NCBI GenBank assembly: GCA_963665715.2
Contig: CAXXPR010000002.1
Location: 1,670,516 to 1,710,515, forward strand
Direction of reading: 5' to 3'
Length of the DNA: 40,000 nt
Origin: Desulfatiglandales bacterium
GTDB taxonomy: Bacteria > Desulfobacterota > DSM-4660 > Desulfatiglandales > HGW-15
The stretch's first letter is position 1, and each line of letters starts with the position of its first letter. This document shows, piece by piece, positions 5,890-24,835 of the stretch. The notes below the pieces were generated by a model. That model saw only the letters and a program-made list of their open reading frames with translations, searched no databases and was not told where the DNA came from. A program made the translations under genes and the position numbers.

Positions 5890-5931
5890 AGCGGTTTTTT
5901 TGTTACCGGTCAGTAATAAAACTTACCCTGT

Positions 5932-6285
5932 TTACTCTAATTTATTGTGTTTAATTTTTATTTTGTCTTGTTGTTTTTGCATTTCCGCCATCATACTTTG
6001 TAGTTTAGGACGGATTTGTGTCTGATAGTAATTCATAGCTTCGTCTTCTGTTTGAAAAACTTCAGTTGCATGCCATTCCTTGGGTATGCCAATACAATCA
6101 ATATTGTCCCAAGTATGAACTATGGCAATATATCCATTGACTGTCTCATCAAAACGAACACCGCCTTTCATCCGAATAGAAGGAGATAGCCCATTAAATT
6201 GAGATTGATTTGATTTCTCACAGCACTTTTTATATTTTTTGCCACTACCACAAGGGCAGGGATCATTCCGGCCTATTTTTGTCAT
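5932..6285 (-). CDS. Cassette ORF: SEC-C metal-binding motif protein
   Basis: The N-terminal [15 protein letters not shown] is the classic SEC-C Zn-binding motif. A GTTAGC core lies 29 nt upstream of the start (minus orientation). Confidence 0.7.
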
Positions 6286-6313
6286 TACTTAATTTATACC
6301 TTTTTGTTCATTC

Positions 6314-6376
6314 AGCTAACGCGCTGCATAAGCGGATTGGCAAGCTTTTCGCCAATTCCGACTTGATGCAAATGTT
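6314..6376 (-). other. attC (short class), interrupted by intron copy 1; the remainder resumes at 8486
   Basis: agctaacgcgctgcataagcggattggcaagcttttcgccaattccgacttgatgcaaatgtt is nearly collinear with the intact attC at 23099-23165. Joining 6376 to 8486 restores gtt|agca. Confidence 0.75.
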
Positions 6377-8485
6377 GTGTGCCGGGCTGGTCCGGCTGCT
6401 AATTGGTGATGCGGAGATATTTATGACACAAATACTCTGCAAAGTCCATATCCAGGCTGACGGAGCCGAAGGATAGTCGGAGGCAAGGGTGTTCCAGTAA
6501 TGTGCGCCTGAAGGAAGCCTAAGACAAAAGCGTGGGTTGACGTACAGGTATGCCCCGTACCTATGAGGTAGAGGGCAGGCAGATTTGAGGCCGGGTGAAG
6601 CCGGGACGAGTCCGCAACACAGGACAAAGTCCTATATCCGTTACATGGCTGAGCCAGGTATATCTGACAATCGTGCGCTGAAAGTAGCCGAGGCTTACCC
6701 CGGGAGGTCCGCTGTGTCTCAAAGGGTCTATCGCTGTAAGCTACCGGAATATTGGGGAAACCGGTAAAAAAAAAATCCCGGCATCAAATGACCGGGCGTC
6801 CCGGTCAATGATGAGCCTGTTCTTAAGAGCGGGGCAAACAAACAGAGGGCGCAGGCGGTAGAAACCGGCGAGTGATCAAACCGCAAGGGGAGATTATCGC
6901 ACAGCGGAAGTCAGCAGAGGGCATAATAGTTCCCGAGTACAGTCGGTACTAAGGAATAAGGCCCGAACGGTGCCACCTATCGAATGGTAGGGGTAAATGA
7001 GAGCGGTTATTAGGAGACGAGTCTAATGAAATCATTGCGGCAGTGGAAACAACTTGAGTTGTACTCTATAGATCCCGAGCCCAGGGCTAAGACGGATACG
7101 AGTTCCGAAGATTTTATTGCGTCACGTTTATCTGAAAGCCCGACAGGTCAGATCCGGCTCATGGAGTCAATCTGTGAGCGGAACAACATGAGACGCGCTA
7201 TCAAGCGGGTTATTAAGAACAAGGGAGCCCCCGGTGTGGATGGTATGACTGTCCGAAAGATAGAGAAGTATTACAATAGGCACCGGGATAAAATTGAAAA
7301 GGCATTACTTGAGGGAACCTACATGCCGACCCCGGTACTGCAGAAGGAGATACCCAAACCAAATGGCGGTGTCCGCCTTCTGGGAATACCAATAGTGCTG
7401 GACAGAGTAATACAACAGGCTGTAGCCCAGATTCTGACAAGTGTCTGGGATCATACCTTTTCAGAGAACAGCTTTGGCTTCCGGCCTAAACGGTCCCAGC
7501 ATGGCGCTATGCGCAGGTACAGGGAGTTCGTGAAGGCTGGAGGAAAATATGTGATAGACATTGATCTATCCAAATTCTTCGACCGGGTAAACCATGATCG
7601 TTTATTAGCAAGGTTATCCACCCGGATAAAGGATAAGAGGGTACTAAAGCTGATTCGCAGGTTTCTTACATCCGGAGTAATGATAGATGGAATGGAAGAA
7701 CCAACAGAAGAGGGAACACCTCAGGGAGGGCCGTTATCTCCTTTACTGAGTAATATCGTTCTTGATGAACTGGATAAAGAGCTTGAAAAGCGTAGTCTTC
7801 GCTTTGTCCGATATGCTGATGACTGTGTCATATTTGTCAAAAGCAGAAAGGCGGCGAATCGAGTAATGAGCAGTATAAGCCTGTTTATAGAAAATAAACT
7901 CAGGCTTAAGGTGAACAGGGAAAAGAGCAGCATTACACTTCCATGGAAAAGTAAATATTTGGGGTTTTGTGTGACCAACTCGAAAGAGAATCCTAAAATC
8001 CGAATTCACTGGAAGTCTATTAAGCGGTTTAAAGAAAGGGTAAGAGAAATAACCTCCAGACGCCGTGGTAGAAGTATTAAACAGGTGATCTGGGAGTTAA
8101 AAGTCTATATGAACGGCTGGTGGAATTATTATGGTTTAACCGAATCCTACAACCGTTTGAAACCCCTTGACCACTGGATAAGACGACGCCTGAGGGCTAT
8201 TATCTGGAAACACTGGAAGAACCGCAGAACCCGTGTCAGTGAACTCCTTAAAAGAGGAGTTCGCAAAGAAGAAGCTGTTACTACCGGGTGTGCTCGAAAG
8301 GGGCCATGGAGAATGAGCCGAGTCTTATGGGTTCAAATGGCCCTTCCTGATAAATACTTCTCATCACTTGGGCTTGTGTTCCCATGGAACTGAATACTGC
8401 CTTGGATCAGCCGAACCGCGCATTACGGACCCGTATGATGCGTGGTGTGGGAGGGGGTAGCTGTGAGGCTACTCCCTATCCCGAT
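6377..8485 (+). mobile_element. Group II intron, class C (IIC-attC type), full-length copy 1
   Basis: 5' GTGTG. About 650 nt of structured, ORF-poor RNA, then an RT/maturase ORF. Domain V-like hairpin at about 8415-8446 with a CGC triad and a 2-nt 3' bulge. Domain VI-like stem with a bulged A 8 nt from the end; 3' end ...cccgat. Inserted directly after an attC hairpin. Confidence 0.9.
7026..8393 (+). CDS. Group II intron-encoded reverse transcriptase/maturase (no endonuclease domain)
   Basis: RT motifs: GVDGMT, RLLGIPIVLDRVIQQA, FGFRP, DIDLSKFFDRVNHD, TPQGGPLSPLLSNI, YADD in RYADDCVIFV. Maturase X-like C-terminus (GWWNYYG). At 455 aa it ends without a D/En domain, as expected for class C. 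Confidence 0.95.
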   Translation: MKSLRQWKQLELYSIDPEPRAKTDTSSEDFIASRLSESPTGQIRLMESICERNNMRRAIKRVIKNKGAPGVDGMTVRKIEKYYNRHRDKIEKALLEGTYMPTPVLQKEIPKPNGGVRLLGIPIVLDRVIQQAVAQILTSVWDHTFSENSFGFRPKRSQHGAMRRYREFVKAGGKYVIDIDLSKFFDRVNHDRLLARLSTRIKDKRVLKLIRRFLTSGVMIDGMEEPTEEGTPQGGPLSPLLSNIVLDELDKELEKRSLRFVRYADDCVIFVKSRKAANRVMSSISLFIENKLRLKVNREKSSITLPWKSKYLGFCVTNSKENPKIRIHWKSIKRFKERVREITSRRRGRSIKQVIWELKVYMNGWWNYYGLTESYNRLKPLDHWIRRRLRAIIWKHWKNRRTRVSELLKRGVRKEEAVTTGCARKGPWRMSRVLWVQMALPDKYFSSLGLVFPWN

Positions 8486-8703
8486 AGCAAAATAGGTTAT
8501 TTATGACACTTAAACTTAAATTAAAAATAAAAAAACAAGAGCATAATAAGTACGATGGTTCATTATCTTTTTATCATAGTAATGGAGCTGGTTGTTCTGT
8601 CATTACTATAATGGAAAACAGCCCTCATGATACTATTAATACGCTTATTGATGGACTCATGAATGTCACCCCTAATTTTATGCAAAGAGAAATTGATGAA
8701 TAT

Positions 8704-8967
8704 TTAAAGGATGCGCGTAAACCGTATCAATGGCATATTTTTTTTAGATGGTGGAGTTATTTCAGGCGCAGGTTTAGCGCTCCATCCTAACTCTTTTGCC
8801 CAAGGCTGTAGAGTTTCGGAATCAATGCGTTGAATATCAAATGTGCATTCATGATCGTCTCCAGGGAAAGCTTGCGCTACTTTACGATAAGGAATAACGA
8901 TATCATTTTCCTTGCATTCAATAAGGTTTTTCTCTAAGGCTTTACGATGTGTTATTGTTTCATCCAT
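8704..8967 (-). CDS. Cassette ORF, hypothetical (87 aa)
   Basis: Preceded, in minus orientation, by GTTAGCAAATAAGAGGAGATAACCATCATG (core plus strong SD). The 3' part overlaps a plus-strand ORF and its true end is uncertain. Confidence 0.45.
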   Translation of the reverse strand: MDETITHRKALEKNLIECKENDIVIPYRKVAQAFPGDDHECTFDIQRIDSETLQPWAKELGWSAKPAPEITPPSKKNMPLIRFTRIL

Positions 8968-8987
8968 GATGGTTATCTCCTCTTATT

Positions 8988-9118
8988 TGCTAACGTTTAA
9001 GTTAAGGAGCCCGGCGGTTTAATGGTGATTAGCCTCATGCTCCTAAGATGCTTGTTAATGTTGACTGTGCTCCGCCCGGCAAGATAGTAGCTGGGTCCCC
9101 TTGAACTTTTTGTTATAA
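8988..9118 (-). other. attC (long class)
   Basis: Bounded by tgctaac and gttataa. The arms aagttaaggagcccggcgg and ccgcccggcaagatagtagctgggtccccttgaactt are largely complementary. Paralogous to 13072-13200. Confidence 0.7.
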
Positions 9119-9122
9119 AAAA

Positions 9123-9467
9123 TTACTCCTCGGTTTTAATTGATAGTATATTTTTAATTTCTTTTAATGTCTTTTTGTCTGTACGAAAATTGATTTTAAA
9201 AATAACGTCCTTTTCAAGGATTAATACTAAATTGTTTTCTGTGAGATCATATTCTCTTATACCTACTCCGCCATCGTATTCTTTTCCATCATACCATTCA
9301 ACTGTTGGTCTGAAAGGCGGAATCTCGTATTGAGCGCTGATCATAAGGTATATTGATTGGTCCTCATTAGGATTAGGATATACTTCGGAATCAAAATCTA
9401 TCTGAACATACTCTCCATCACCTGCTTCAGTATATTCCACTTTCTTTGCTTCAAATTTTATTTCCAT
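9123..9467 (-). CDS. Cassette ORF, hypothetical acidic protein (114 aa)
   Basis: Fills the cassette exactly, with its stop 5 nt before the TTATAAC core and its start 15 nt after a GTTATAA core. No family recognised. Confidence 0.6.
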   Translation of the reverse strand: MEIKFEAKKVEYTEAGDGEYVQIDFDSEVYPNPNEDQSIYLMISAQYEIPPFRPTVEWYDGKEYDGGVGIREYDLTENNLVLILEKDVIFKINFRTDKKTLKEIKNILSIKTEE

Positions 9468-9481
9468 TAATTACCTGGTTT

Positions 9482-9568
9482 TTATAACGGCCAAGCTCAC
9501 CAGCCCCGCCATGATATTTTATATCAAGCAAGGAACCCACCGGGGTCTGGTGTAGCTGTTTGTTAGCG
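9482..9568 (-). other. attC (87 bp)
   Basis: Bounded by ttataac and gttagcg, with internal complementary arms caccagccccg / cggggtctggtg. The stop codon of the upstream cassette ORF lies inside the GCTAAC core. Confidence 0.65.
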
Positions 9569-10174
9569 GTTGTTTTCTTGACTCATTTCTATAATAGCAT
9601 TGTATCTTGAAAGATATTGTGAGTCGCTTTCAGGATCGATATCGCACCAATTATTTTGTATTACCATATCATTGACACTAGAAAAAGATGGACTAACAAC
9701 ATATTTCTTTTCGTCTGGATCTTTCATAAGTGATAAATCAGCCAGCCAAACATAAGATTCAAAAATGCCGTCAGTAGTTTCATTTTCAGCTATATATGAT
9801 AATTTTTCAGTATCTTCTTCAAAGAACTTTCTTATAAAATAAACACCCCTTGGACCACATTTAATGCCTGCAAGTGAAACTTGAGTGTTGTTTTCTAAAA
9901 TGAAGATGCCATTATCTGTTATAGATTTGACAGCAAATATTTTTTTGTTCCAAGGCGTTGGAGGGGTAGGATATTTACTGTTTATTTTGTCCATCATTTT
10001 AAACCCCTCATTCAAAGAATCAATTTCTTTTTGGGTAGCGTCCCTTACAACAATTTCACCTTTCGCATTTTTATATGCTGTTTCAGAAAATGATATAGAT
10101 TTTTTGTCATTATTATCACAGCCAAGTAACGTAATAATAATTAATATCGTTGGTATTGATTTACACAATTTCAT
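9563..10174 (-). CDS. Cassette ORF: predicted lipoprotein (203 aa)
   Basis: Signal peptide with lipobox IIITLLGC|D. GTTAGCGGTATAAGGGAATG (core plus SD) is at the start. The segment ITDNGIFILENNTQVSLAGIKCGP weakly recalls SNase-like OB-fold proteins; this is not asserted. Confidence 0.65.
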   Translation of the reverse strand: MKLCKSIPTILIIITLLGCDNNDKKSISFSETAYKNAKGEIVVRDATQKEIDSLNEGFKMMDKINSKYPTPPTPWNKKIFAVKSITDNGIFILENNTQVSLAGIKCGPRGVYFIRKFFEEDTEKLSYIAENETTDGIFESYVWLADLSLMKDPDEKKYVVSPSFSSVNDMVIQNNWCDIDPESDSQYLSRYNAIIEMSQENNR

Positions 10175-10191
10175 TCCCTTATACCGCTAAC

Positions 10192-12009
10192 GACGCTGTC
10201 GAAAAACCCACTTTATAAAAAAATATTAATCCTGGGAAATGACAGCCTGAAAAAAATATATTTATTGTAAAAATAAAATGATTAAAAAAGAAAAACTAAA
10301 ATCCGGTAAGAAAAATCGATCTACAGGCCTATATGGCCTTCATTCGGCCTTTTCTATGTACCTTGTATTGCGTAGCTGGTGCCATAGTTGCATATTTTCT
10401 CGATATTGTGAACTATACAATACAGCATCCACTGAATATTCACCTTTACCTTTCCTCTCAGGGTAAATCTGTCCATTCTCTTATTGGCTCTGATATTTCC
10501 AAAAACCGGCTCAACAATCCCCAGGCGCTTACTGTATGTCTTCCGACCTTCTGGTGTATCTATCTTGTTCCTCATTTCATCCAGAACACTTCCAGGTCGG
10601 TTCCCATCTATTATGGTTACTTGCCTCGATACTGTTTTATCAGGTTTTCGTAAACATTTTGCTCTAAGTTCACAGTTTCCACATGCTTTCTTTGTCCCCT
10701 GGTAAATTATCCCCTTATTACCTTTTTTATCTGCCCAGTTTCTGCTTCGGACGTAAAGGCTGTGACCTGCAGGGCAGATAAGTTTGTCCTTTTCATCATC
10801 ATAACTAAAATCTTCAACTGAAAAATATTTTTTACTCTTATCCGTTTTATTCTTATCAATAGGCCTGCGATATCGGCCTGCATCTGCAAACCTTATATCT
10901 CTCTTTCTGAACTGCTGGTCAGGGACATAAGCATCAACTTCATACTCTTTGCATGCTTTCAGGTTATTAATGCTGTAGTATCCTGTGTCTGCACTTACAG
11001 TCTTATTTTTTAAAGGGTCTTCAATACCAACTGCCTCGAGATTTTGCTTTGCGCCTTCCAGCATAGATTCCATTAGGCTGGTGTCATCACCTTTACCATA
11101 GGCCTCTGCATTAACTATTACCTGATGCTTTTCATCTACCATGGCATTGGCGTTATATCCCTGCAATACTCCATGTGATGTGGCTGCCATTTTTGCAGAC
11201 TCATTATCTGTTACATTACTCTGAATCTCTTTGCCTGTAGAACCTATCTTTGGTTTATTGCTTGAAAGAAATTTATCTATTCTGTCTGCTTTTTGCTTCA
11301 GACCCTTTATTCTTTTTTCTCTCTTTTGTTTTTCTGAAGTACTATTTTTGCTCTCTATTTTATCGGCAGATTGATGTTCTGCTATGGCCTCTTTAACTTT
11401 TTTCTCAAGCTTTTCTTTTTTCTTCTGAAGATCGCTGAAAGTCCCACTCCATTCCTTTGATGCATTTGAGGAGGCCTTCATTCCATCAAGACTGAAATGA
11501 GTGTTACCAAGTAACCCTTCTTCTTCACATATTAATAAGACTTTAGTGAAAAGGTTTCCAACTGTTTCATCCATTGAATTTACAAATGATGCTATCGTGC
11601 TGTGATCAGGCTTTTGACAGCAGGAGAGGGCCATGAAGGTGATATTTTCTTTACACGCTCTTTCAAGTGGTCTGGTAGAAAACATTCCTCGTGAATAGCC
11701 GAACAAAATTATCTTTAATAAAACCTTAGGATCAATTGCCTTACGACCAGTGTCATCATTCCTGTATCGTTTATCAAAGAATCTCAGGTCAAGCCTTTCT
11801 TCAATGATGTAATGTATTGCATACTCAAGGGTGCCAGGTTCTAACTGGTCCTCAAGAGATAATGGTATCATCCTTAATTGGTCATAGTCGGTTGGGGTGT
11901 AGCGTGCCATCAAGTAAGCTCCGTGTGATGAAGAGGTTAATTGCAATTTAGCACACTGTGTTATATCTTCAAGTATTATTAAGTCCTTTTTTACTTTTTC
12001 GACACCGTC
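10192..12009 (-). mobile_element. IS1182-family insertion sequence (copy A) inserted in an attC core
   Basis: 15-bp terminal inverted repeats GACGCTGTCGAAAAA (10192-10206) and GACGGTGTCGAAAAA (reverse complement of 11995-12009). Flanks read gctAAC|IS|AACgtg, an apparent 3-bp duplication. Single transposase ORF. Confidence 0.8.
10354..11910 (-). CDS. IS1182-family (IS5/DDE-type) transposase
   Basis: The N-terminus MARYTPTDYDQ...LEPGTLEY...RYRNDDTGRKAIDPKVLLKIILFGYSRG...R.LERACKENI.FMAL is characteristic of IS1182-family transposases as I recall them. The track start at 11946 probably over-extends. Confidence 0.9.
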   Translation of the reverse strand: MARYTPTDYDQLRMIPLSLEDQLEPGTLEYAIHYIIEERLDLRFFDKRYRNDDTGRKAIDPKVLLKIILFGYSRGMFSTRPLERACKENITFMALSCCQKPDHSTIASFVNSMDETVGNLFTKVLLICEEEGLLGNTHFSLDGMKASSNASKEWSGTFSDLQKKKEKLEKKVKEAIAEHQSADKIESKNSTSEKQKREKRIKGLKQKADRIDKFLSSNKPKIGSTGKEIQSNVTDNESAKMAATSHGVLQGYNANAMVDEKHQVIVNAEAYGKGDDTSLMESMLEGAKQNLEAVGIEDPLKNKTVSADTGYYSINNLKACKEYEVDAYVPDQQFRKRDIRFADAGRYRRPIDKNKTDKSKKYFSVEDFSYDDEKDKLICPAGHSLYVRSRNWADKKGNKGIIYQGTKKACGNCELRAKCLRKPDKTVSRQVTIIDGNRPGSVLDEMRNKIDTPEGRKTYSKRLGIVEPVFGNIRANKRMDRFTLRGKVKVNIQWMLYCIVHNIEKICNYGTSYAIQGT

Positions 12010-12071
12010 AACGTGTTGATAACCAGCCTGGCGAGCTTTTTGCCAGGTCTGAGTTTATTAAATTGTTGTGT
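12010..12071 (-). other. attC (short class), separated from its GTTAGC core (10186-10191) by IS copy A
   Basis: aacgtgttgataaccagcctggcgagctttttgccaggtctgagtttattaaattgttgtgt has a central palindrome cctggc..gccagg, the same architecture as 23099-23165. Confidence 0.6.
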
Positions 12072-12074
12072 AAT

Positions 12075-13049
12075 TTATTTAAATTTATCCCCTTTGAGGG
12101 AGCATAGCTCTATACACCTATCTAGCCAAGATTGATACCAATACCAGCAACCTGCGACATCAACTCCATAACCTTTTCCTGGTTTTTTTGCATCCTCAGA
12201 TTTCCACATTTCAACATGTTCAGGATAAACTCGGAATTTTGGAAAACCAGCACCCCTCACTGCAGCAGCAATATCACTCGGCCTATATTTCTTTCTCTCA
12301 ACTTCCTTTTTTACCCAGTATTCTTTATCAATTTTTTTAGCTAGATCTGATTTAGGGTCTATAAATTCAACAACTTTATCTGCTTGGCCGGGCCTATTAA
12401 CAAGCTTCTTTTTAAAGAGAAGACGGTAGGAAAAATTGGGGCTATTATACTCATCATGGTTTAATGCATCATCAAATTCAACAATGTATGCTTTAAGTCG
12501 CTTTGGAATATCAGCTTCTAACTTTTTACCTTGTAATTGTTCCTCTGATAGTTCTATGAATTGCAATGAATAACTTAAATATTCGTCCAATGAGTGTCTA
12601 GTCCCGAAATATTTTTTAATATAATAGTTGTAATTTAAAATGCATGCTTGATACCTACCACTTAAATATTCATCAAGTGATAATGTCATTTGGTGCTCAA
12701 TTTCATGGCGAAGACCGATTAGAAATCTTAGATTATTTGCTGTATTTTTATCAATAGGCGATAAAATATCATTTAGGCACCTTTCAAGTTCCCAATATTT
12801 ATATGCGCCTTTTTTTGTTCTATCGAAAAACCTTCGTTTCCCATGTTGTTGAAAATACCTGTACTCAACTCCATTTGAGCGAAAATATGCATGTAGTAGA
12901 TAAGTCCATGCTATTATCATTAATACAATAAATGTTTCTGATTTAAACTTTATGAGTGGATCATTAAATATTTTTACTGCTGATAAAGAAGCTTCCTTAG
13001 ACTTAGCGAGCAGTTCATCCTTAATAGATCCAATTCTACGCTTTGTCAT
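12075..13049 (-). CDS. Cassette ORF: DUF3644-like / HEPN-like (Rx4H) protein, candidate RNase or abortive-infection-type protein
   Basis: 324 aa from ATG 13049, after GTTGTGTAATAAATAAAGAGGATAAAGTAATG (core plus SD). The N-terminus SLSAVKIFNDPLIKFKSETFIVLMIIAWTYLLHAY and the motif FLIGLRHEIEH (R-x4-H) resemble DUF3644/Abi-like HEPN proteins. From memory, not searched. Confidence 0.55.
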   Translation of the reverse strand: MTKRRIGSIKDELLAKSKEASLSAVKIFNDPLIKFKSETFIVLMIIAWTYLLHAYFRSNGVEYRYFQQHGKRRFFDRTKKGAYKYWELERCLNDILSPIDKNTANNLRFLIGLRHEIEHQMTLSLDEYLSGRYQACILNYNYYIKKYFGTRHSLDEYLSYSLQFIELSEEQLQGKKLEADIPKRLKAYIVEFDDALNHDEYNSPNFSYRLLFKKKLVNRPGQADKVVEFIDPKSDLAKKIDKEYWVKKEVERKKYRPSDIAAAVRGAGFPKFRVYPEHVEMWKSEDAKKPGKGYGVDVAGCWYWYQSWLDRCIELCSLKGDKFK

Positions 13050-13071
13050 TACTTTATCCTCTTTATTTATT

Positions 13072-13200
13072 ACACAACGTGAAGTTAAGGAGCCTAGCGG
13101 TTTAATGGCAACCAACTTCACACACCTAAGATGCTTATAATATTGATTTTGTTCCGCACGGCAAGATAGTAGCTAGGTCCCCTTGAACTTATGGTTAAAT
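13072..13200 (-). other. attC (long class)
   Basis: Bounded by acacaac and gttaaat. Contains aagttaaggagcctagcgg...cggcaagatagtagctaggtccccttgaactt, collinear with 8988-9118. Confidence 0.7.
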
Positions 13201-13221
13201 GTTTAGATGGTATATTTCCCT

Positions 13222-13635
13222 CTACTTCTTTAGTTGCACTAAATTGATTTTATATTTTATCTTCTCAAGATTTTTTATTTCTAATGTCAGACTATTAATG
13301 CAAGCACAAGCTGCAACTGAACGCTTGAAAAAGCCATCGTCTGGATTGGTGGCCAAATATTCTATATTGAGTACGTCCTCTTTAATGTCAATATTACACT
13401 TTGTTATTTTATAGGCACAATTTATTTGTACGAACGCCTCAATCTTTAGAGTGTTAGGAGTCGTCCATTGAACCGTAGATACACCATAATTTGAAAATTC
13501 ATAAGGATTCTCATCAAAACGTTCACAGGATGATGAATCAAAACTAAAGTCATACTTATTATGGCTAGTGCTACAGGACAATAGGGTTGTCATCAAAAGA
13601 GATATTAAGATCACAGCTAGTTTTATTTTATTCAT
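13222..13635 (-). CDS. Cassette ORF: predicted lipoprotein (about 137 aa)
   Basis: Signal peptide with lipobox TTLLSC|S. ATG at 13635 (track uses GTG at 13644). Several Cys residues. No family recognised. Confidence 0.6.
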   Translation of the reverse strand: MNKIKLAVILISLLMTTLLSCSTSHNKYDFSFDSSSCERFDENPYEFSNYGVSTVQWTTPNTLKIEAFVQINCAYKITKCNIDIKEDVLNIEYLATNPDDGFFKRSVAACACINSLTLEIKNLEKIKYKINLVQLKK

Positions 13636-17232: not shown

Positions 17233-17463
17233 CTAATACTCCTCCTCTTCATCATCAGTAATATATTCCCACATTTCATTTTGATGCAACCAGATTGGAT
17301 CAGCGTTTCTTCTTATGAATTCATCAACATCCATTCCATCAATTGTCGGCGGGCGTTTTACTCGCTTCTGTTTTCCATTTATGAATATGGTTTCATATTC
17401 TTTTTTCCGCTTCTTCTTTGCAGCTTTTTCGGCGGCAGTAAGTTTTCGTTTACGTTTTGCCAT
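17233..17463 (-). CDS. Cassette ORF, small protein with Lys/Arg-rich N-terminus and acidic tail (76 aa)
   Basis: ATG at 17463 (MAKRKRKLTAAEKAAKKKRKK...DDEEEEY). The track start at 17508 reads into the attC. No family recognised. Confidence 0.5.
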   Translation of the reverse strand: MAKRKRKLTAAEKAAKKKRKKEYETIFINGKQKRVKRPPTIDGMDVDEFIRRNADPIWLHQNEMWEYITDDEEEEY

Positions 17464-17483
17464 TATATTTATTCTCTGTTCAC

Positions 17484-17607
17484 TCCCAACGCCCAAAATA
17501 ACAGGCATGCGGTGCTTACCTTTAAAGTTTATTTAATTTGAAAACTTTGCGAACCACGAAAGATCGATTCGGCAAGATAGTAGCATGTCCTTGTTGATTT
17601 AAATGTT
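17484..17607 (-). other. attC (long class), interrupted at its high-coordinate core by intron copy 2
   Basis: ctcccaac...ttcggcaagatagtagcatgtccttgttgatttaaatgtt|intron. Joining 17607 to 19718 gives gtt|atttt. Confidence 0.7.
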
Positions 17608-19717
17608 GTGTGCCGGGCTGGTCCGGCTGCTAATTGGTGATGCGGAGATATTTATGACACAAATACTCTGCAAAGTCCATATCCAGGCTGACGGAGCCGA
17701 AGGATAGTCGGAGGCAAGGGTGTTCCAGTAATGTGCGCCTGAAGGAAGCCTAAGACAAAAGCGTGGGTTGACGTACAGGTATGCCCCGTACCTATGAGGT
17801 AGAGGGCAGGCAGATTTGAGGCCGGGTGAAGCCGGGACGAGTCCGCAACACAGGACAAAGTCCTATATCCGTTACATGGCTGAGCCAGGTATATCTGACA
17901 ATCGTGCGCTGAAAGTAGCCGAGGCTTACCCCGGGAGGTCCGCTGTGTCTCAAAGGGTCTATCGCTGTAAGCTACCGGAATATTGGGGAAACCGGTAAAA
18001 AAAAAAATCCCGGCATCAAATGACCGGGCGTCCCGGTCAATGATGAGCCTGTTCTTAAGAGCGGGGCAAACAAACAGAGGGCGCAGGCGGTAGAAACCGG
18101 CGAGTGATCAAACCGCAAGGGGAGATTATCGCACAGCGGAAGTCAGCAGAGGGCATAATAGTTCCCGAGTACAGTCGGTACTAAGGAATAAGGCCCGAAC
18201 GGTGCCACCTATCGAATGGTAGGGGTAAATGAGAGCGGTTATTAGGAGACGAGTCTAATGAAATCATTGCGGCAGTGGAAACAACTTGAGTTGTACTCTA
18301 TAGATCCCGAGCCCAGGGCTAAGACGGATACGAGTTCCGAAGATTTTATTGCGTCACGTTTATCTGAAAGCCCGACAGGTCAGATCCGGCTCATGGAGTC
18401 AATCTGTGAGCGGAACAACATGAGACGCGCTATCAAGCGGGTTATTAAGAACAAGGGAGCCCCCGGTGTGGATGGTATGACTGTCCGAAAGATAGAGAAG
18501 TATTACAATAGGCACCGGGATAAAATTGAAAAGGCATTACTTGAGGGAACCTACATGCCGACCCCGGTACTGCAGAAGGAGATACCCAAACCAAATGGCG
18601 GTGTCCGCCTTCTGGGAATACCAATAGTGCTGGACAGAGTAATACAACAGGCTGTAGCCCAGATTCTGACAAGTGTCTGGGATCATACCTTTTCAGAGAA
18701 CAGCTTTGGCTTCCGGCCTAAACGGTCCCAGCATGGCGCTATGCGCAGGTACAGGGAGTTCGTGAAGGCTGGAGGAAAATATGTGATAGACATTGATCTA
18801 TCCAAATTCTTCGACCGGGTAAACCATGATCGTTTATTAGCAAGGTTATCCACCCGGATAAAGGATAAGAGGGTACTAAAGCTGATTCGCAGGTTTCTTA
18901 CATCCGGAGTAATGATAGATGGAATGGAAGAACCAACAGAAGAGGGAACACCTCAGGGAGGGCCGTTATCTCCTTTACTGAGTAATATCGTTCTTGATGA
19001 ACTGGATAAAGAGCTTGAAAAGCGTAGTCTTCGCTTTGTCCGATATGCTGATGACTGTGTCATATTTGTCAAAAGCAGAAAGGCGGCGAATCGAGTAATG
19101 AGCAGTATAAGCCTGTTTATAGAAAATAAACTCAGGCTTAAGGTGAACAGGGAAAAGAGCAGCATTACACTTCCATGGAAAAGTAAATATTTGGGGTTTT
19201 GTGTGACCAACTCGAAAGAGAATCCTAAAATCCGAATTCACTGGAAGTCTATTAAGCGGTTTAAAGAAAGGGTAAGAGAAATAACCTCCAGACGCCGTGG
19301 TAGAAGTATTAAACAGGTGATCTGGGAGTTAAAAGTCTATATGAACGGCTGGTGGAATTATTATGGTTTAACCGAATCCTACAACCGTTTGAAACCCCTT
19401 GACCACTGGATAAGACGACGCCTGAGGGCTATTATCTGGAAACACTGGAAGAACCGCAGAACCCGTGTCAGTGAACTCCTTAAAAGAGGAGTTCGCAAAG
19501 AAGAAGCTGTTACTACCGGGTGTGCTCGAAAGGGGCCATGGAGAATGAGCCGAGTCTTATGGGTTCAAATGGCCCTTCCTGATAAATACTTCTCATCACT
19601 TGGGCTTGTGTTCCCATGGAACTGAATACTGCCTTGGATCAGCCGAACCGCGCATTACGGACCCGTATGATGCGTGGTGTGGGAGGGGGTAGCTGTGAGG
19701 CTACTCCCTATCCCGAT
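17608..19717 (+). mobile_element. Group II intron, class C (IIC-attC type), full-length copy 2
   Basis: All ORF translations are identical to copy 1, and the coordinate offset is constant except for one extra A in a poly-A run (A11 at 17997-18007 versus A10 at 6766-6775). Same 5' exon heptamer aaatgtt. Confidence 0.9.
18258..19625 (+). CDS. Group II intron-encoded reverse transcriptase/maturase (identical to 7026-8393)
   Basis: The 455-aa translation is identical to copy 1. Confidence 0.95.
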   Translation: MKSLRQWKQLELYSIDPEPRAKTDTSSEDFIASRLSESPTGQIRLMESICERNNMRRAIKRVIKNKGAPGVDGMTVRKIEKYYNRHRDKIEKALLEGTYMPTPVLQKEIPKPNGGVRLLGIPIVLDRVIQQAVAQILTSVWDHTFSENSFGFRPKRSQHGAMRRYREFVKAGGKYVIDIDLSKFFDRVNHDRLLARLSTRIKDKRVLKLIRRFLTSGVMIDGMEEPTEEGTPQGGPLSPLLSNIVLDELDKELEKRSLRFVRYADDCVIFVKSRKAANRVMSSISLFIENKLRLKVNREKSSITLPWKSKYLGFCVTNSKENPKIRIHWKSIKRFKERVREITSRRRGRSIKQVIWELKVYMNGWWNYYGLTESYNRLKPLDHWIRRRLRAIIWKHWKNRRTRVSELLKRGVRKEEAVTTGCARKGPWRMSRVLWVQMALPDKYFSSLGLVFPWN

Positions 19718-20003
19718 ATTTTCGTCTTTTCGTCTTTTTATTGTATTTTGATATTAAATAATTTTCTCTGAGTTTAATGAATATTTTAACAACAAAACCG
19801 ATAATTGAAACAATGAACATGATACAAACAGTTATTAAAACTCCGATATAATTCATTTCAACGCCATGGCCTGTTTTATAATAATCTAAGCCGTGACCAG
19901 TTATTACTTTATGAATGAGTAACAAAACGAAACCTAGAAACCCAATGGTAATTGAGCATCCAAAAATTACACTGAAGAATTTATTTAGTTTACCTTTTGC
20001 CAT
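19701..20003 (-). CDS. Cassette ORF: small membrane protein; C-terminus altered by intron insertion
   Basis: Two hydrophobic helices and a basic tail. The last 5 codons plus the stop (YRDRE*) are encoded by the reverse complement of the intron 3' end. Without the intron the frame would stop at T|AA within the core. Confidence 0.55.
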   Translation of the reverse strand: MAKGKLNKFFSVIFGCSITIGFLGFVLLLIHKVITGHGLDYYKTGHGVEMNYIGVLITVCIMFIVSIIGFVVKIFIKLRENYLISKYNKKTKRRKYRDRE

Positions 20004-20016
20004 TTATCCATTCGAA

Positions 20017-20146
20017 AAATAACGTTTGCGATAAGGAGTTTGCGGGTTAATGGTGCCGATGAACGATTAAGTAAAAAGCGCCTTAAAGCTGTTGAATTCC
20101 AATCGGCAAGAAAAACCAGCAAATCCCCTTGATTGCTTTGTTAGCA
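20017..20146 (-). other. attC (long class)
   Basis: Bounded by aaataac and gttagca. Close paralogue of 14348-14477. Confidence 0.7.
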
Positions 20147-20154
20147 TTAAATGA

Positions 20155-20454
20155 CTATTCTACTGAACATATGAACTCAAACTCGATATCAGGATATTCA
20201 GCCAACAAACTAAACATTGAATCAAATTCCTGTTTATGTTCATTATTATGCGAGCGCCATATGGCATTGGTATCTCCAAGTTTTAGAGTAACCGCACTTG
20301 CCAATTGAATTGATATTAAATTATTTCCGTTCGCATTAGAAAATATTTGATTTAAATTATCTGAAGAGCTTTTAATTGCTATCTGTTCCTGATTAATTGC
20401 CATTTTCATTTGAGCAATGACCTTCGATGTAACTTTTAAAAAAACTGTTTCCAT
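20155..20454 (-). CDS. Cassette ORF, hypothetical (99 aa)
   Basis: GTTAGCATCCGAAAGGAACTATATTAATG (core plus SD) at the start; the stop is 8 nt before the attC core. No family recognised. Confidence 0.5.
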   Translation of the reverse strand: METVFLKVTSKVIAQMKMAINQEQIAIKSSSDNLNQIFSNANGNNLISIQLASAVTLKLGDTNAIWRSHNNEHKQEFDSMFSLLAEYPDIEFEFICSVE

Positions 20455-20474
20455 TAATATAGTTCCTTTCGGAT

Positions 20475-20545
20475 GCTAACGGTGAGGATGACCGGCGAAC
20501 GGGTTAAAAAAGAAAAAAGGTGTTGCACCCCAGTGGCCGTTATCC
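20475..20545 (-). other. Possible attC or attC fragment at the IS91-like element boundary
   Basis: gctaac...gttatcc cores at the right spacing, but by eye the arms pair poorly. The site may be disrupted by the adjacent IS91-like element. Confidence 0.3.
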
Positions 20546-20802
20546 CACATTAAATTGTTTGCCTCCATAGTCCAGTTCGACCGGTCCATCCATTTGTTGG
20601 ACGGCACTCTTGGTACTATGGATTTTTCTGACACCCTATTTTTGTGCCCCTACAATTAGAAAACTACACTTCTGAACAATGATTCCGAAGATACAAGGGG
20701 TTGTGATCCTAAAATGTACATTGAATACGTTTGAAAATGGTTGTTATTTTGGCTTAAAGGTATACTTCACCATAGAAGCTATATATTATCATTTAAATTT
20801 TA

Positions 20803-21993
20803 TCAAGCAGCCATCCTAAGAGGTGGTGGCTTGGCGTATCTTATTACCTTTTCTGTTACAAGCAGTGATCCGCATTCAGGACAAAAGATCCCTTCCCATT
20901 CCGGAAACATACTTTGCAAAAGTTCCTGTGCATGGGGTAGATCAGTGAGCGGTTCATATGGCTTCTGGCCCAGTTGTAAACGGGCTGTGTTAAGCTTTTT
21001 AATACAGTTGGGATGAAACAGCCCGTATGCTCGAACCATATGTGTCCCTTTTTCCGGAACATGATTCAGTATCCTGTGTATGAATGTCCCGGCATTAAGA
21101 ACAAAGCTCCGCTTCTCATGTTTATCACGATGGGCATATGCTATTCTTATGTTTTCCCCATCGTATGACATGATCCGCTTTTCGGAGATCGGACCTCTTC
21201 TGATATACCTTCCGACATACTTGAATACGCCATTGGAGTGTTCATAGGGCGGTTCTACCCTCACATTCCATTTCTTTCTGCCAAGTTTGTTCAGGAGATT
21301 AAGACACTGCTGTTTGCTCTTATCCGGTGGAATAGTAAAAACCTTGTTATCCGGCTTTTGATTTCCTGTTTTCGTTAAGCTGTTAAAAGCTTCACGAAGA
21401 TAGGCAAGGAACTTGCCTTTGAACTTTGCTGACAATACCCGGCTTGGTATAAGAAATCCATCGTCCACGCTTTTCCATTTGCCGTCAGCTCCTAAACCTC
21501 CGCCTGTTACAACAAAGTGCAGGTGACAGTGATTCTGCATCTCATCGCCCCAGCTCTGGAATACCCCGATAACTCCGGGATAGCCTCCCAGCCATCTGGC
21601 ATCTCCAAGCAGTTCCCTTAACGCATGCCAGGCTGCCATAAACATGATGTTTGTAAACAGCTTCCGATTATACAGCCATATGAAATGAAGGTCATGGCTT
21701 ATTGTAAATGTAACGTGATGGTATTTGCAGTTAAGGGCTTGTTTCTTGCGACGCTGCAGCCAGACCTCGGTTTCTGTAGAACCGCACTGGGGACAGCTTC
21801 TGTGTTTGCATGAGTTGTTGAGGATGATGCTGTAATGCCCCTTGGGGCATTTATCAATATGGTAGCCCTGTGCTCGGGTGCGACAGGTCATTATGTTCCA
21901 TGATGCCTTCCTCTCCCGCTCACTCAATTTATGATGCTTGCGGTAGGCTTCATAATGGTCATTAAATATCTTCTGAACTATCCCCGCTTTCAT
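20803..21993 (-). CDS. IS91-family (HUH/Y2 rolling-circle) transposase
   Basis: N-terminal Zn-binding Cys cluster (CKHRSCPQCG), HUH-like HCHLHFVVTGGG, and a double-Tyr motif FKYVGRYIRRGPISEKRI typical of IS91/ISCR transposases. Confidence 0.85.
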   Translation of the reverse strand: MKAGIVQKIFNDHYEAYRKHHKLSERERKASWNIMTCRTRAQGYHIDKCPKGHYSIILNNSCKHRSCPQCGSTETEVWLQRRKKQALNCKYHHVTFTISHDLHFIWLYNRKLFTNIMFMAAWHALRELLGDARWLGGYPGVIGVFQSWGDEMQNHCHLHFVVTGGGLGADGKWKSVDDGFLIPSRVLSAKFKGKFLAYLREAFNSLTKTGNQKPDNKVFTIPPDKSKQQCLNLLNKLGRKKWNVRVEPPYEHSNGVFKYVGRYIRRGPISEKRIMSYDGENIRIAYAHRDKHEKRSFVLNAGTFIHRILNHVPEKGTHMVRAYGLFHPNCIKKLNTARLQLGQKPYEPLTDLPHAQELLQSMFPEWEGIFCPECGSLLVTEKVIRYAKPPPLRMAA

Positions 21994-22201
21994 CAGATAA
22001 TGGTCCTGTCTTGATATCAGCCTTTATATCATTCAATAACTCTTCCGCTCTTTCCTCGCCAAACTCTTCAACCATCTGATCCCATATCTCAGACTTCTGA
22101 AGTTCCTTACGAAAGTTAACTGCAAATCTACTGCTGAACTCATCTTCAAAACTTCTTTGTTTCTTAACTTTGCGCCCCTTCAGTCGTTTGCCTTTACCCA
22201 C
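21962..22201 (-). CDS. Small basic/acidic ORF upstream of and overlapping the IS91-family transposase
   Basis: 79 aa with a GTG start, co-oriented with tnpA and overlapping its start by 32 nt. No family recognised; may be an accessory ORF or non-coding. Confidence 0.3.
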   Translation of the reverse strand: MGKGKRLKGRKVKKQRSFEDEFSSRFAVNFRKELQKSEIWDQMVEEFGEERAEELLNDIKADIKTGPLSDESGDSSEDI

Positions 22202-22671
22202 GATCTCTCAACCTTCTTCCTGTTTTTTCAAAAACATTAGTCCAACGTAAACATTACAGGCCGTGCGGTGTAAACCTACTTGCCATATTAAATGTGCTGA
22301 GGTTTGAACTTGGCAGATATTTAAAAAAGCGGAAAAAAATAGCACGGTCCTTGTAGATGTACTTGTTGGCAGTGTTCAACCAACCTGTATAGTTTGTTTT
22401 TAACTGCTTACTTCCTGATCATTGTCTTTTAATGCTTTTTTGTTTTTTTAAATGATTTGATGCATTTAAATATTATGTCTTTTTGATTTTTCTTTTTTAT
22501 GCTTTTTCAATTTTAATTTCAAAAGAATTTCCGGGGAGCAAAAGACTTCCGGATAAAAATAGAGACATTTCTTATTCAATAATTTAAATATTCAATTCTC
22601 ACGCCTTTGAGTTACATGTTTTGCAACATCACTTCCGATTTCACCGGGATATTTTTTATGCACTATTAAAC

Positions 22672-22738
22672 TGCCAACGACACGATAACCGGCCGGGCGG
22701 CGTTTTATCGCCCGGTCGGGTTTATTGATTGGTTGTGT
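22672..22738 (-). other. attC (short class)
   Basis: Bounded by tgccaac and gttgtgt, with internal palindrome ataaccggccgggcg / cgcccggtcgggtttat. Overlaps the 3' end of ORF 22705-23049. Confidence 0.55.
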
Positions 22739-23049
22739 GTTTTTTTTCCTTTGTCCGAAGGGTCCAAATGCAAACCACATTTTGGACAGTTACCTCCAAC
22801 AATAGGAGTTCCCCAAGAGGAACACCTTGGACATTTCTTTAATAATGCGACGTTTAATCCTAAATAGATTGTTACCACGAATAATAAAAGCAATAATGCT
22901 ATACCTAATATTAGATTATGATCTGAAATGATTTTTACTATTAAACTAAAGCCACCAAGACAAAGAACATAAAACGGAAGATGCTTATAAAATTTACCCA
23001 TTTCCTGAAGTCTTTTTCTCTCTTCATCATTTGGAATGTTTGTGTTCAT
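22705..23049 (-). CDS. Cassette ORF: membrane protein with C-terminal zinc ribbon (114 aa)
   Basis: Two hydrophobic helices followed by CPRCSSWG...CPKCG. Confidence 0.55.
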   Translation of the reverse strand: MNTNIPNDEERKRLQEMGKFYKHLPFYVLCLGGFSLIVKIISDHNLILGIALLLLLFVVTIYLGLNVALLKKCPRCSSWGTPIVGGNCPKCGLHLDPSDKGKKTHNQSINPTGR

Positions 23050-23098
23050 GACTTTTTCCTACATGTGAGTTCTATAGTTTCCTTACTTTTCAATTCAC

Positions 23099-23165
23099 AC
23101 ACAACGCGCTGCATAAGCTGTTTGGCAAGCTTTTCGCCAAATCCGACTTGATGCTGATGTTAGCG
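23099..23165 (-). other. attC (short class, intact)
   Basis: acacaacgcgctgcataagctgtttggcaagcttttcgccaaatccgacttgatgctgatgttagcg, with central palindrome tttggc..gccaaa. The stop of ORF 23160-23525 lies in the GCTAAC core. Confidence 0.7.
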
Positions 23166-23525
23166 TTTCCACCTTGGTAGTTTAAAATACCGCAACATCC
23201 CCATTAATAATTGATGGGGCCAGACTGTTTTATAGTTTTTTATATGTTCTACTACTTCCTCAAAAATTGATTCTGGTACATCGGGTGAGTTTGCCGATAT
23301 CCATAAAAAAGCGAAAGGACTTGTTATAATAAATGGATGTTCCTTGTACAAAAATTCTATTTGAACATCATCTGTCATTGCTGAAGATGCTTTTGATAAA
23401 ACTTTAATCTCTTCAAGTCTTTCAAGATGAGTTAAAATCATTGTTGCGTCCGGCCAATAACCTTGTAGTTCAATGCAATATGGTTCTTCTTTTGTACCAC
23501 CGAGTCTTTTGAATTTTATTGCCAT
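23160..23525 (-). CDS. First cassette ORF, hypothetical (121 aa)
   Basis: ATG at 23525 after GTTAGCGTTGTAGGAAATATG. The track start at 23642 reads through the candidate attI. No family recognised. Confidence 0.55.
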   Translation of the reverse strand: MAIKFKRLGGTKEEPYCIELQGYWPDATMILTHLERLEEIKVLSKASSAMTDDVQIEFLYKEHPFIITSPFAFLWISANSPDVPESIFEEVVEHIKNYKTVWPHQLLMGMLRYFKLPRWKR

Positions 23526-23536
23526 ATTTCCTACAA

Positions 23537-23660
23537 CGCTAACATATAGTAGGTTGCCGAAAAGCCGTGTTATTTCACGGCTAATACGTAATACTAAATT
23601 TTTTATACTGCTTATTAGTCGTCTAAACCGCAAATATGTCATATTAGACGACTTTTTAGT
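23537..23660 (-). other. Candidate attI region
   Basis: A GTTAGC core (reverse complement of 23537-23542) sits at the junction with cassette 1, between the array and intI. Contains inverted repeats agccgtg/cacggct (about 23562-23582) and agtcgtcta/tagacgact (23617-23653). Boundaries are inferred. Confidence 0.4.
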
Positions 23661-23692
23661 TTGCTAATTATTTTATTTTTAGTATCATCGGT

Positions 23693-23710
23693 GTGAACAA
23701 ATGATCACAG
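23693..23710. promoter_or_regulatory. Palindromic candidate operator upstream of intI (TGTGAACAAATGATCACA)
   Basis: TGTGA-N8-TCACA dyad containing GAAC-N4-GATC, one mismatch from the Cheo-type LexA box GAAC-N4-GTTC. Lies 94 nt upstream of the intI ATG. Function is inferred only. Confidence 0.3.
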
Positions 23711-23803
23711 TAAAGATTTGTATTAATTCTTTCTTTTTAGCTTCAATTTGGAATGTTGTCAAATAAATATTACTAAATTAAAATTAAAAGGAGATGTTAA
23801 GCA

Positions 23804-24835
23804 ATGGAAGAATTAACTGATAATAATAAAGGTATAAAAGAAAATAAAAAGAATAATATCGCCAACAATAAGGCTCCCAGATTATTAAACCAGGTCCAGA
23901 ACAGGATTAGAGCTAAGCATTACAGTATTCGTACTGAACAGGCTTATCTTGACTGGATAAAAAGGTTTATCCTTTATCATGGAAAGCGACACCCTGCCGA
24001 TATGGGTGACGTAGAGATCTGTGATTATTTAACACACCTTGCAGTGAATAGAAAAGTGGCTTCCTCCACTCAAAACCAGGCTTTGAGTGCTATTCTTTTT
24101 ATGTATAGAGAAATTATCAAGAAAGACCTGGAAGAATTTGATGATCTTATCAGGGCAAAGCGGCCATCACATTTGCCGGTGGTTTTTACTCCCGAAGAAA
24201 CCAGGAAGATACTTGTTCAACTGGAAGGTACAAACTGGCTGATGGGGCATCTGCTTTATGGTTCCGGCCTGAGAGTAATGGAATGTACCCGGCTTAGAGT
24301 CAAGGATATTGATTTTGAATATAAGCAGATAGTTGTAAGAGACGGTAAAGGTAATGTTGATCGTGTAACCATGCTTCCCAGGATAATTATTGAAAACCTT
24401 AAGACCCACCTGGAAAAAATAAAAATACAGCACAAGAGCGATCTCGATGAAGGGTTTGGGACAGTTTATTTACCCTATGCTCTTGATAAAAAGTATCGCA
24501 ATGCCAATAGAAGCTGGATATGGCAGTATGTATTTCCTGCTGCCAGACGTTCGGTTGACCCCAGATCGGGTGTTGAACAGAGACATCATATTTCTGAAAC
24601 TGTTATCCAGCGGGCTGTGAAAAAGGCTATTCGTAATGCAGGGATTACCAAGGCAGGGTCCTGTCATTCATTAAGGCATAGTTTTGCAACTCATTTACTT
24701 GAAGACGGGTATGATATACGAACAGTTCAGGAGCTGCTTGGACATAAGGACGTAAGAACTACCCAGATATACACTCATGTTCTCAGCAGGGGAGGAAAGG
24801 GCGTAAAAAGTCCCGGAGACAAGCTTTTTGAATAG
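23804..24835 (+). CDS. intI: Integron integrase (tyrosine recombinase IntI)
   Basis: [25 protein letters not shown]-terminus. Catalytic GLRVMEC (R), [10 protein letters not shown] (H-x-x-R), [13 protein letters not shown] (Y). The IntI-specific insertion [38 protein letters not shown] is present. Confidence 0.92.

Follow-up and report, generated by a model that had tools for sequence, protein, structure and literature searches.

An integron with mobile elements at its attC sites and a lexA-linked integrase gene on a Desulfatiglandales chromosome

What is contained in the interval of some 18 kb that lies opposite an integron integrase gene (intI) on the chromosome of a Desulfatiglandales bacterium, and how may that integrase be controlled? 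The locus was analysed in a window of 40,000 nt (GenBank assembly GCA_963665715.2, contig CAXXPR010000002.1, positions 1,670,516 to 1,710,515 of the forward strand; coordinates below are those of the window), in which a first-pass annotation, made from the letters alone, had seen a large sedentary-type chromosomal integron of co-oriented small open reading frames (ORFs). We hold with high confidence that the locus is a complete chromosomal integron of 15 cassettes in a Desulfobacterales-type host, colonised by elements that target the attC recombination sites of its cassettes, and with intI in a predicted operon with lexA. The integron itself is ordinary; the mobile colonisers and the intI-lexA linkage are the more unusual features. 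The identification of a chromosomal integron, with intI and attC, agrees with the earlier reading, which however overlooked about 40% of the content of the interval, namely mobile elements. Rather than some 18 kb of co-oriented small ORFs, approximately 7.9 kb are two plus-strand group II introns and two IS1182-family insertion sequences (ISs), and the interval further holds a 264-nt intron remnant and a 1.8-kb cassette with an IS91-family transposase gene. Integrons of the anaerobic sulfate-reducer lineage have been surveyed but seldom dissected, and the array represents a well-resolved example.

The integrase, attI and the cassettes

Two features define the head of the array.

23804..24835, plus strand: intI, integron integrase (343 aa); TIGR02249 469 bits, gap-free alignment to 2A3V
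23537..23650, minus strand: attI region; its crossover core GTTAGCG (23543-23537), when reverse-complemented, reads exactly as the R'' core of cassette 1 (CGCTAAC)

The product of intI matches the NCBIfam integron integrase model TIGR02249 over 315 of 315 positions, with 469 bits at a cut-off of 265, as against 152 bits for XerC and 144 bits for XerD, where the matches are split into two stretches. Among solved structures the best match is VchIntIA (2A3V, 309 bits), with a gap-free alignment over residues 28-340 that runs through the IntI-specific segment lacking in Xer proteins and covers the catalytic R, K, H-x-x-R, H and Y; Xer proteins reach at most 117 bits, and thus the recombinase does not fall with XerC/D. 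The integron-specific insertion and the divergent arrangement seen at first pass are both present, the intact gene ending at 24835 and the minus-strand array at about 5890. The closest homologues in a large protein collection range from 90% down to approximately 65% identity, and the named ones belong to Desulfobacterales, Desulfobacteraceae and Desulfosarcina; in current taxonomy, the host is hence not the proteobacterium-like one previously suggested.

Since integron cassettes are circles that open at G|TT, the R'' core of cassette n should pair with the 5' core of the same cassette, that is with R' of site n-1. Indeed, R''(n) and R'(n-1) are reverse-complementary without a mismatch at 14 of the 15 junctions, attI with cassette 1 included. 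At the level of variable positions, 59 of 60 match, as against 16 of 56 when R''(n) is compared with its own R'(n), and the observed count of exact junctions was reached in none of 100,000 permutations. The rule places attC4, attC6, attC7 and attC9, with which the covariance model described below agrees, and it yields cassette boundaries to the base. It also reveals that automatic ORF calls overrun attC and attI: four long listed ORFs begin inside such sites, the true starts being MAIKFKR (cassette 1), MAKRKRK (7), MIENISK (9) and MTKRRIG (11). The count obtained is 15 cassettes, rather than the approximately 14 proposed, and one of them has no credible ORF.

23105..23542, minus strand: cassette 1, orphan ORF of 121 aa starting MAIKFKR at 23525; attC1 23165-23099
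22678..23104, minus strand: cassette 2, 114-aa membrane/CxxC protein; attC2 22738-22672, with the stop codon in the attC loop
22246..22677, minus strand: cassette 3, non-coding; attC3 22371-22240
20480..22245, minus strand: cassette 4, 79-aa ORF and IS91-family Y2 transposase gene (20803-21993); attC4 20602-20474
20023..20479, minus strand: cassette 5, 99-aa orphan; attC5 20146-20017
17490..20022, minus strand: cassette 6, small membrane protein; attC6 19721-19718 and 17607-17484, intron 2 between
17110..17489, minus strand: cassette 7, 76-aa basic protein starting MAKRKRK; attC7 17230-17108, R' at the ISb junction
14354..15199, minus strand: cassette 8, 241-aa CxxC protein; attC8 14477-14348
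13651..14353, minus strand: cassette 9, HEAT-repeat protein (Pfam HEAT_2) starting MIENISK; attC9 13772-13645
13078..13650, minus strand: cassette 10, 140-aa lipoprotein; attC10 13200-13072
12012..13077, minus strand: cassette 11, DUF3644 protein, PADLOC candidate PDC-S19; attC11 12071-12010, R' at the ISa junction
9488..10190, minus strand: cassette 12, 203-aa lipoprotein; attC12 9568-9482
8994..9487, minus strand: cassette 13, 114-aa orphan; attC13 9118-8988
6320..8993, minus strand: cassette 14, 87-aa orphan and about 215 nt; attC14 8489-8486 and 6376-6314, intron 1 between
5890..6319, minus strand: cassette 15, SEC-C motif protein (5932-6285; Pfam SEC-C)

Every unit is framed by RYYYAAC and GTTRRRY cores and imperfect palindromes, as had been noticed before, and on the minus strand each gap between ORFs contains an imperfect palindrome with ...AAC at its start and GTT... 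at its end. The cores are degenerate here, and a strict search for RYYYAAC...GTTRRRY at 40-170 nt spacing returned a single pair, which is the L box of attC9. A covariance model (R1) was built from ten of the attC sites, its structure comprising the AAC/GTT pairs and two L-box helices only. Applied with filters off to the 40-kb window, it recovered on the minus strand the ten training sites and four untrained ones, the latter at the predicted coordinates with 51 (attC6), 41.8 (42; attC7), 37 (attC9) and 19 bits (attC4), so that matches of this custom model fall at the cassette boundaries. The plus strand gave four weak matches (12-15 bits, E 0.17-0.65), three of which mirror attC3, attC5 and attC8, with one outside the array at 27665-27700 (12.4 bits, E 0.65). 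As an independent set, we used 82 loci around IntI homologues from other phyla (at most 66% identity), oriented with intI on the plus strand; the scan that supplied them was dominated by a peptide pattern of universal conservation. The model returned 51 matches at E <= 0.1, 47 of the 51 opposite the intI strand, all upstream of intI. Since attC sites are detected in this set as well, the repeats of the window belong to the general attC class.

The internal structure is congruent with this assignment. In the training alignment, 97% of the cells of the L-box helices are paired, as against 25-41% in slid registers, and eight pairs carry compensatory changes. An extra top-strand base in the L boxes (GTTCAAG versus CTTAAC) corresponds to an extrahelical G on the bottom strand, and an unpaired spacer of 4-6 nt separates the R and L boxes. 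Folding of the bottom strands, a check suggested at first pass, placed 7 of 12 strands at least 1.8 standard deviations better than shuffles (z-scores of -2.5 for attC2, -3.0 for attC12 and -3.2 for attC14, which with the intron removed folds as a canonical hairpin), but left attC1, attC10 and attC13 at shuffle level; thermodynamic folding alone is weaker evidence than cores and covariance model. The GGCAAG block reported earlier is present in nine of the 14 sites (as CTTGCC on the cassette strand). The high homogeneity and species-specific family ascribed to the sites were overstated: identity between pairs averages 0.52, no more than four pairs attain 70%, and the 14 sites, nine of 127-132 nt, four of 66-67 nt and one of 87 nt, form a mix of four or five families. 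As the attC sites do not represent one uniform repeat, a sedentary, VCR-like label is not established.

Taken with these observations, IntI, a tyrosine recombinase, would take up circular cassettes into attI through the crossover G|TTAGCG (position 23543), and would excise and reshuffle them via the folded bottom strands of the attC sites, with the 15 cassettes probably accumulated in this manner on the strand opposite intI. The arrangement resembles the Vibrio cholerae superintegron (VCR attC sites; VchIntIA, PDB 2A3V) in that intI is divergent from attI, promoterless cassettes each carry an attC of R''/L''/L'/R' architecture with extrahelical base and unpaired spacer, and the array is chromosomal with mostly orphan cassettes, here including one candidate phage-defence gene. 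It differs in the number of cassettes, only 15, in the four or five attC families, in the Desulfobacterales-type host and in the predicted co-transcription of intI with lexA. The cassette strand has, 17 nt upstream of the attI crossover, a hairpin GCCGTGAAATAACACGGC with TTTT behind it (23560-23581, minus strand) and, further upstream at about 23614-23652, a 10-bp inverted repeat, AGTCGTCTAA...TTAGACGACT; both may serve attI in IntI binding or in the manner of a terminator.

The cassette products correspond to those described at first pass, i.e. two lipoproteins, two small membrane proteins, two CxxC proteins, a HEAT-repeat protein and a SEC-C protein, most without a Pfam match. The idea of a reservoir of defence cassettes gained one concrete support only: the gene of cassette 11 (12075-13049, minus strand), which in addition to DUF3644 of Pfam (188 bits) matches PDLC04948, the PADLOC candidate PDC-S19, over its full length with 504 bits; nothing else gave a convincing match to defence models. 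Cassette 3 is AT-rich, and within its boundaries no ORF exceeds 37 aa. With the intron taken out, the ORF of cassette 6 stops at the TAA within its R'' (AAATAAC), the last five codons listed for it being intron sequence. Of the attC of cassette 15, only an R'' stub, CGCT (5893-5890), is left. In cassette 14, the 87-aa ORF (8704-8967, minus strand) is opposed by a convergent 95-aa ORF (8503-8790, plus strand) with an overlap of 87 nt, and the remaining stretch of about 215 nt holds no minus-strand ORF above 40 aa.

Mobile elements at the attC sites

The mobile elements of the interval display three different routes by which such elements exploit attC hairpins. On the minus strand, two genes encode IS1182-family transposases (516 and 530 aa) and one an IS91-family transposase (396 aa), the other minus-strand ORFs being small and in their majority without Pfam match. 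The plus strand carries two copies of a 455-aa reverse-transcriptase/maturase gene, identical to each other, with Rfam matches to group II intron domains D1-D4 ahead of each.

15201..17107, minus strand: ISb, IS1182-family, 1907 nt, ends GAGGCTGTCGAAAAAG ... CTC; NF033551 312 bits; GTT on both sides
10192..12009, minus strand: ISa, IS1182-family, 1818 nt; NF033551 310 bits; GTT on both sides

Both transposases exceed the NF033551 cut-off of 270, and the two elements are approximately 80% identical over the 300 nt compared. They share inverted repeats of the form GA(G/C)G(C/G)TGTCGAAAAA, with ends GA(G/C)G(C/G)TGTCGAAAAAG. With ...ACGTT on one side and GTTAGC... on the other, ISb occupies the R' core of attC7 and ISa that of attC11, both in cassette orientation. 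The flanks of relatives agree with this: in contigs encoding transposases 65-78% identical to ISb (loci L084-L112), GTT closes each of the 16 distinct left flanks (as CGTT in 14 cases) and opens each of the 13 distinct right ones, where R'-like bases come next. Besides those of the window, 14 independent sites have the element at the R' end of an attC, oriented as the cassettes are. The surrounding genes are small, co-oriented and of cassette type (GNAT, ParDE, MazE/PIN, PemK), an attC found by the covariance model ends at the IS junction at eight distinct sites, and 21 of 21 attC matches in these loci are on the transposase strand. A more distant, 5'-truncated relative from Pseudoalteromonas (L117, 40% identity) offers only its right end, CTACAGGCTC|GTTAGAG, which is suggestive of the same preference. 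A scan of metagenome contigs with the transposase returned a single locus, of no relevance here.

Members of the IS1182 family, IS1272 and TnSha1, are reported to target the foot of hairpins (PMC5678879, PMC4923244). The lineage found here is similar to these in family and in having the foot of an inverted repeat or hairpin as target; IS1272 however shows neither sequence preference nor duplication and deletes part of the hairpin, whereas here the target is always GTT, the hairpin is kept and the orientation is fixed. A further likeness is to the IS1111-attC group of the IS110 family, which comprises orientation-specific ISs located almost only in attC sites. These nevertheless use a DEDD enzyme guided by seekRNA, in contrast to the DDE transposase of IS1182, and here the element enters at the cassette boundary, in the R' GTT, is bracketed by GTT and spares the attC. 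We propose that two different members of one IS1182 lineage entered the array through the R' GTT, each oriented as the cassettes are, and left both attC and the next gene intact. Because the attC and the neighbouring gene are undamaged, the IS could ride with the downstream cassette when this is moved by IntI. The searched literature held no description of attC targeting by the IS1182 family, which is weak evidence, as most subscription journals were outside the search. If true, the lineage would constitute a second, mechanistically unrelated class of attC-specific IS beside IS1111-attC; if confirmed, it would moreover offer a new, tool-like case of DDE transposition specific for both structure and sequence, and would repeatedly lead to wrongly annotated "cassettes" when integrons are surveyed in metagenomes.

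The introns follow a second route, into the opposite strand.

6377..8485, plus strand: group II intron copy 1, 2109 nt; intron-encoded protein (IEP) 7026-8393
17608..19717, plus strand: group II intron copy 2, 2110 nt; IEP 18258-19625
5626..5889, plus strand: third intron copy, 5'-truncated, matching intron positions 1848-2109 at 93.6% identity; end of the array

Copies 1 and 2 are 99.95% identical, with a one-base difference in a poly-A run. Their boundaries are congruent with the Rfam matches for D1-D4 and for DV-DVI; the 5' end is GTGTG, and the DV-DVI match (RF00029) ends exactly at 8485, albeit with 33.9 bits and E = 2.5e-4, below the gathering score. All three insertions are on the plus (bottom) strand, between GTT and the A of the R''-box complement, directly after the attC hairpin, and the D1 loop GCAACACA is complementary to the 5' exon end TGTT. 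The IEP scores 415 bits on TIGR04416 and has the RVT_1 and GIIM domains with no endonuclease domain. By insertion site, Rfam matches and IEP domains, the introns appear to be of group IIC-attC type. For such introns, bottom-strand insertion in antisense orientation to the cassettes is known, frequently in the last cassettes or near the distal array end (PMC3001079). Specifically, the elements share with S.ma.I2 and G.s.I1 (Leon, Quiroga, Centron, Roy) the bottom-strand attC location, the antisense orientation, an IEP with reverse transcriptase and maturase and without endonuclease, and one remnant at the distal array end. They differ in that three insertions are found in one array, and in that the closest plasmid-borne IEPs are only about 50% identical; a plasmid search with the IEP recovered no close integron-borne relative. 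An intron of this type would have retrohomed three times into 5'-GTT|A of R'' boxes, its target likely being the attC hairpin together with TGTT, and each insertion splits the attC. The intron remnant of 264 nt is fused 17 nt past the stop of a secreted hydrolase-like gene (4238-5608). Since it abuts this chromosomal gene, a deletion ended the array here, removing the rest of the last attC and what lay beyond.

The third route is that of a passenger. The transposase of cassette 4 reaches 346 bits on NF033538 and comprises Zn_Tnp_IS91 and Y2_Tnp of Pfam, i.e. it is an HUH Y2 enzyme with an N-terminal zinc-binding domain. No ori or ter ends of an IS91-type element were identified at cassette 4, and the unit is instead bounded by cassette cores: it starts at GTTGGAC (22245), matched by the R'' of its own attC4, GTCCAAC. 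In the array of Desulfosarcina ovata (L113), two 2104-nt repeats that are 94% identical and include the IS91 unit both start from GTTGGAC after different attC sites. The transposase gene is hence carried as a cassette and would travel as an ordinary one. The unit recurs with its small upstream ORF at 4775-6581 and 7606-9709 of L113, and also in the right flank of L112.

The intI-lexA pair

Downstream of the integrase gene lies lexA, and upstream of it a candidate control region.

24847..25458, plus strand: lexA, 11 nt past the intI stop, with AGGAG before it; TIGR00498 175 bits (cut-off 111)
23693..23708, no strand assigned: candidate LexA operator GTGAACAAATGATCAC, of GAAC-N4-GTTC type
23661..23688, plus strand: candidate intI-lexA promoter TTGCTA-16-TATCAT from a consensus scan, in which promoter-like matches are not above chance

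The lexA product contains LexA_DNA_bind and Peptidase_S24 of Pfam, and an Ala-Gly cleavage site, the serine of GDSM and the lysine of ATLK are seen in its sequence. In all six Desulfobacterales-type loci (the window, L081, L082, L113, L114 and L115/L116), lexA directly follows intI, with a gap of 11-12 nt or an overlap of 4-11 nt, the IntI proteins of the relatives being 72-90% identical. The genes beyond lexA differ in every one of the six, including the closest, L081, with an IntI 90% identical to that of the window. Among 68 integron loci from other phyla that reach at least 700 nt past intI, none has lexA in this position.

GAAC-N4-GTTC is the LexA box of Gram-positive bacteria. Counted alone, the bare pattern GAACNNNNGTTC is not enriched in the window (11 found versus 12 expected), and only the extended 16-mer is informative. 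With three mismatches allowed, the 16-mer GTGAACAAATGTTCAC occurs once per locus in six loci with upstream sequence, always upstream of intI, against a background of two matches in 1.08 Mb of other loci. The box is located 0-4 nt past a -10-like hexamer in every locus, and a -35/-10 pair is seen in L081, L113, L115 and L082. Across the Desulfobacterales-type loci, the palindrome has the conserved form GTGAACAAATG(T/A)TCAC.

These data suggest that intI and lexA, in this order, make up a two-gene operon, likely transcribed from a sigma-70-type promoter whose start region contains the GAAC-N4-GTTC palindrome. As the palindrome lies in the promoter start region of the shared operon, LexA would repress both intI and lexA. 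DNA damage would then stimulate self-cleavage of LexA through RecA, switching the integrase on and subsequently restoring the repressor. SOS-controlled class 1 and Vibrio integrons (Guerin 2009, Cambray 2011) likewise have a LexA-type palindrome overlapping the promoter region of intI; the palindrome is however GAAC-N4-GTTC here and CTGT-N8-ACAG, the beta/gamma-proteobacterial form, there, and here the lexA gene is itself in the predicted intI transcription unit. The absence of LexA motifs that are not of the beta/gamma type at integron integrase genes has been discussed (Cambray et al.), and an intI-lexA operon would account for the failure of earlier motif searches to detect LexA control outside Proteobacteria. 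If true, the integron platform would carry its own stress switch, hard-wired to the SOS response, and the link between SOS and cassette shuffling would be directly testable outside Proteobacteria.

The literature searched returned nothing relevant on intI-lexA linkage; this is again weak evidence, most subscription journals lying beyond its reach. Both the IS1182 lineage at the attC R' boundary and the intI-lexA operon are well supported by sequence comparison. That the two together, an IS1182 lineage that duplicates GTT and inserts specifically at attC R' boundaries, and an autoregulated intI-lexA SOS platform in Desulfobacteraceae/Desulfosarcinaceae, are real and hitherto undescribed is in our view an even bet.

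Alternative readings and chromosomal context

The position of the ISs could also reflect the integrase, if an IS circle with a GTT junction were recombined by IntI at the R' of an attC, rendering the IS a cassette-like passenger. Every copy indeed sits in GTT...GTT at the IntI crossover triplet and in cassette orientation, and among the relatives the same IS and right-hand cassette are found behind different attC sites (L098 versus L103), and the same attC and IS ahead of different cassettes (L098, L100, L101). Such mixed flanks may however stem from IntI shuffling of IS plus cassette, from recombination between IS copies, or from assembly chimeras, which a repeated IS can produce in contigs from short-read metagenomes. 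Furthermore, the GTT of an IS circle would be located in a loop between perfect inverted repeats instead of in a paired R box, which is un-attC-like, the L105-L111 relatives keep their GTT flanks with no attC detected by the covariance model, and a 3-bp duplication by a DDE transposase is simpler, the IS1182 family already picking hairpin feet. Capture by IntI is thus very improbable, and we infer insertion by the transposase, structure- and sequence-specific and with a 3-bp duplication. Regarding lexA, a housekeeping gene might merely adjoin the integron, with the palindrome as its ordinary autoregulatory box. lexA genes are normally autoregulated, and the protein is a standard cleavable LexA, yet intI is placed between box or promoter and lexA in all six loci, while the genes past lexA change everywhere, which leaves this explanation a minor though appreciable chance. 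Because of that placement, we rather consider the integrase to be under the lexA operator, and the pair to be inherited or moved as a unit.

It is also conceivable that IntI or the array is inactive, a fossil structure in which mobile elements piled up. Five mobile-element insertions are found within 18 kb, the linked lexA of Desulfosarcina ovata is broken into fragments of 79 and 75 aa, and a consensus scan established no cassette promoter (Pc) upstream of attI, the one minus-strand candidate, TTCACA-16-TAAAAT (23697-23670), being a promoter-like match of a sort that occurs in the region at chance level. Moreover, three of the 15 attC sites are intron-split and the last one is truncated by deletion, so that part of the array may be frozen. 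Against this, intI is full length with every catalytic residue aligned to VchIntIA, eleven attC sites are intact, the R''/R' cores are exactly complementary without drift, and the IS insertions left their attC sites whole; the two intron copies, differing by one indel in 2110 nt, point to recent activity in the array. A relic is thus unlikely, and IntI, intron and ISs are probably still competent. The split sites and the failure to establish a Pc nonetheless weigh against our interpretation of the locus, as do the L105-L111 group and several further points. The covariance model was trained on the array's own sites and is not that of IntegronFinder; for about a third of the sites the folding energy is no better than that of shuffles, with z-scores near 0 for attC1, attC10 and attC13 and of -0.7 for attC4; GAAC-N4-GTTC is assumed from other phyla to be the LexA box of this lineage; and the lexA copy was seen within the 40-kb window only, any further copies of the cell being outside this view.

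The chromosomal location is congruent with the surroundings of the array: housekeeping-type genes border it, and a contig of 6,482,100 bp carries the identical ISb transposase. G+C content is 34-38% across much of the array and 42-46% in the flanks. The flanks encode DctPQM, two FliD-like proteins, a histidine kinase, a VWA protein and an ECF sigma factor, and the TRAP transporter (DctPQM), c-di-GMP-I riboswitch and ECF sigma factor named at first pass were all recovered. The FliD-like (flagellar cap) genes are in tandem at 29003-31788 on the plus strand, with the riboswitch (30353-30442, 74.6 bits) directly before the second of them.

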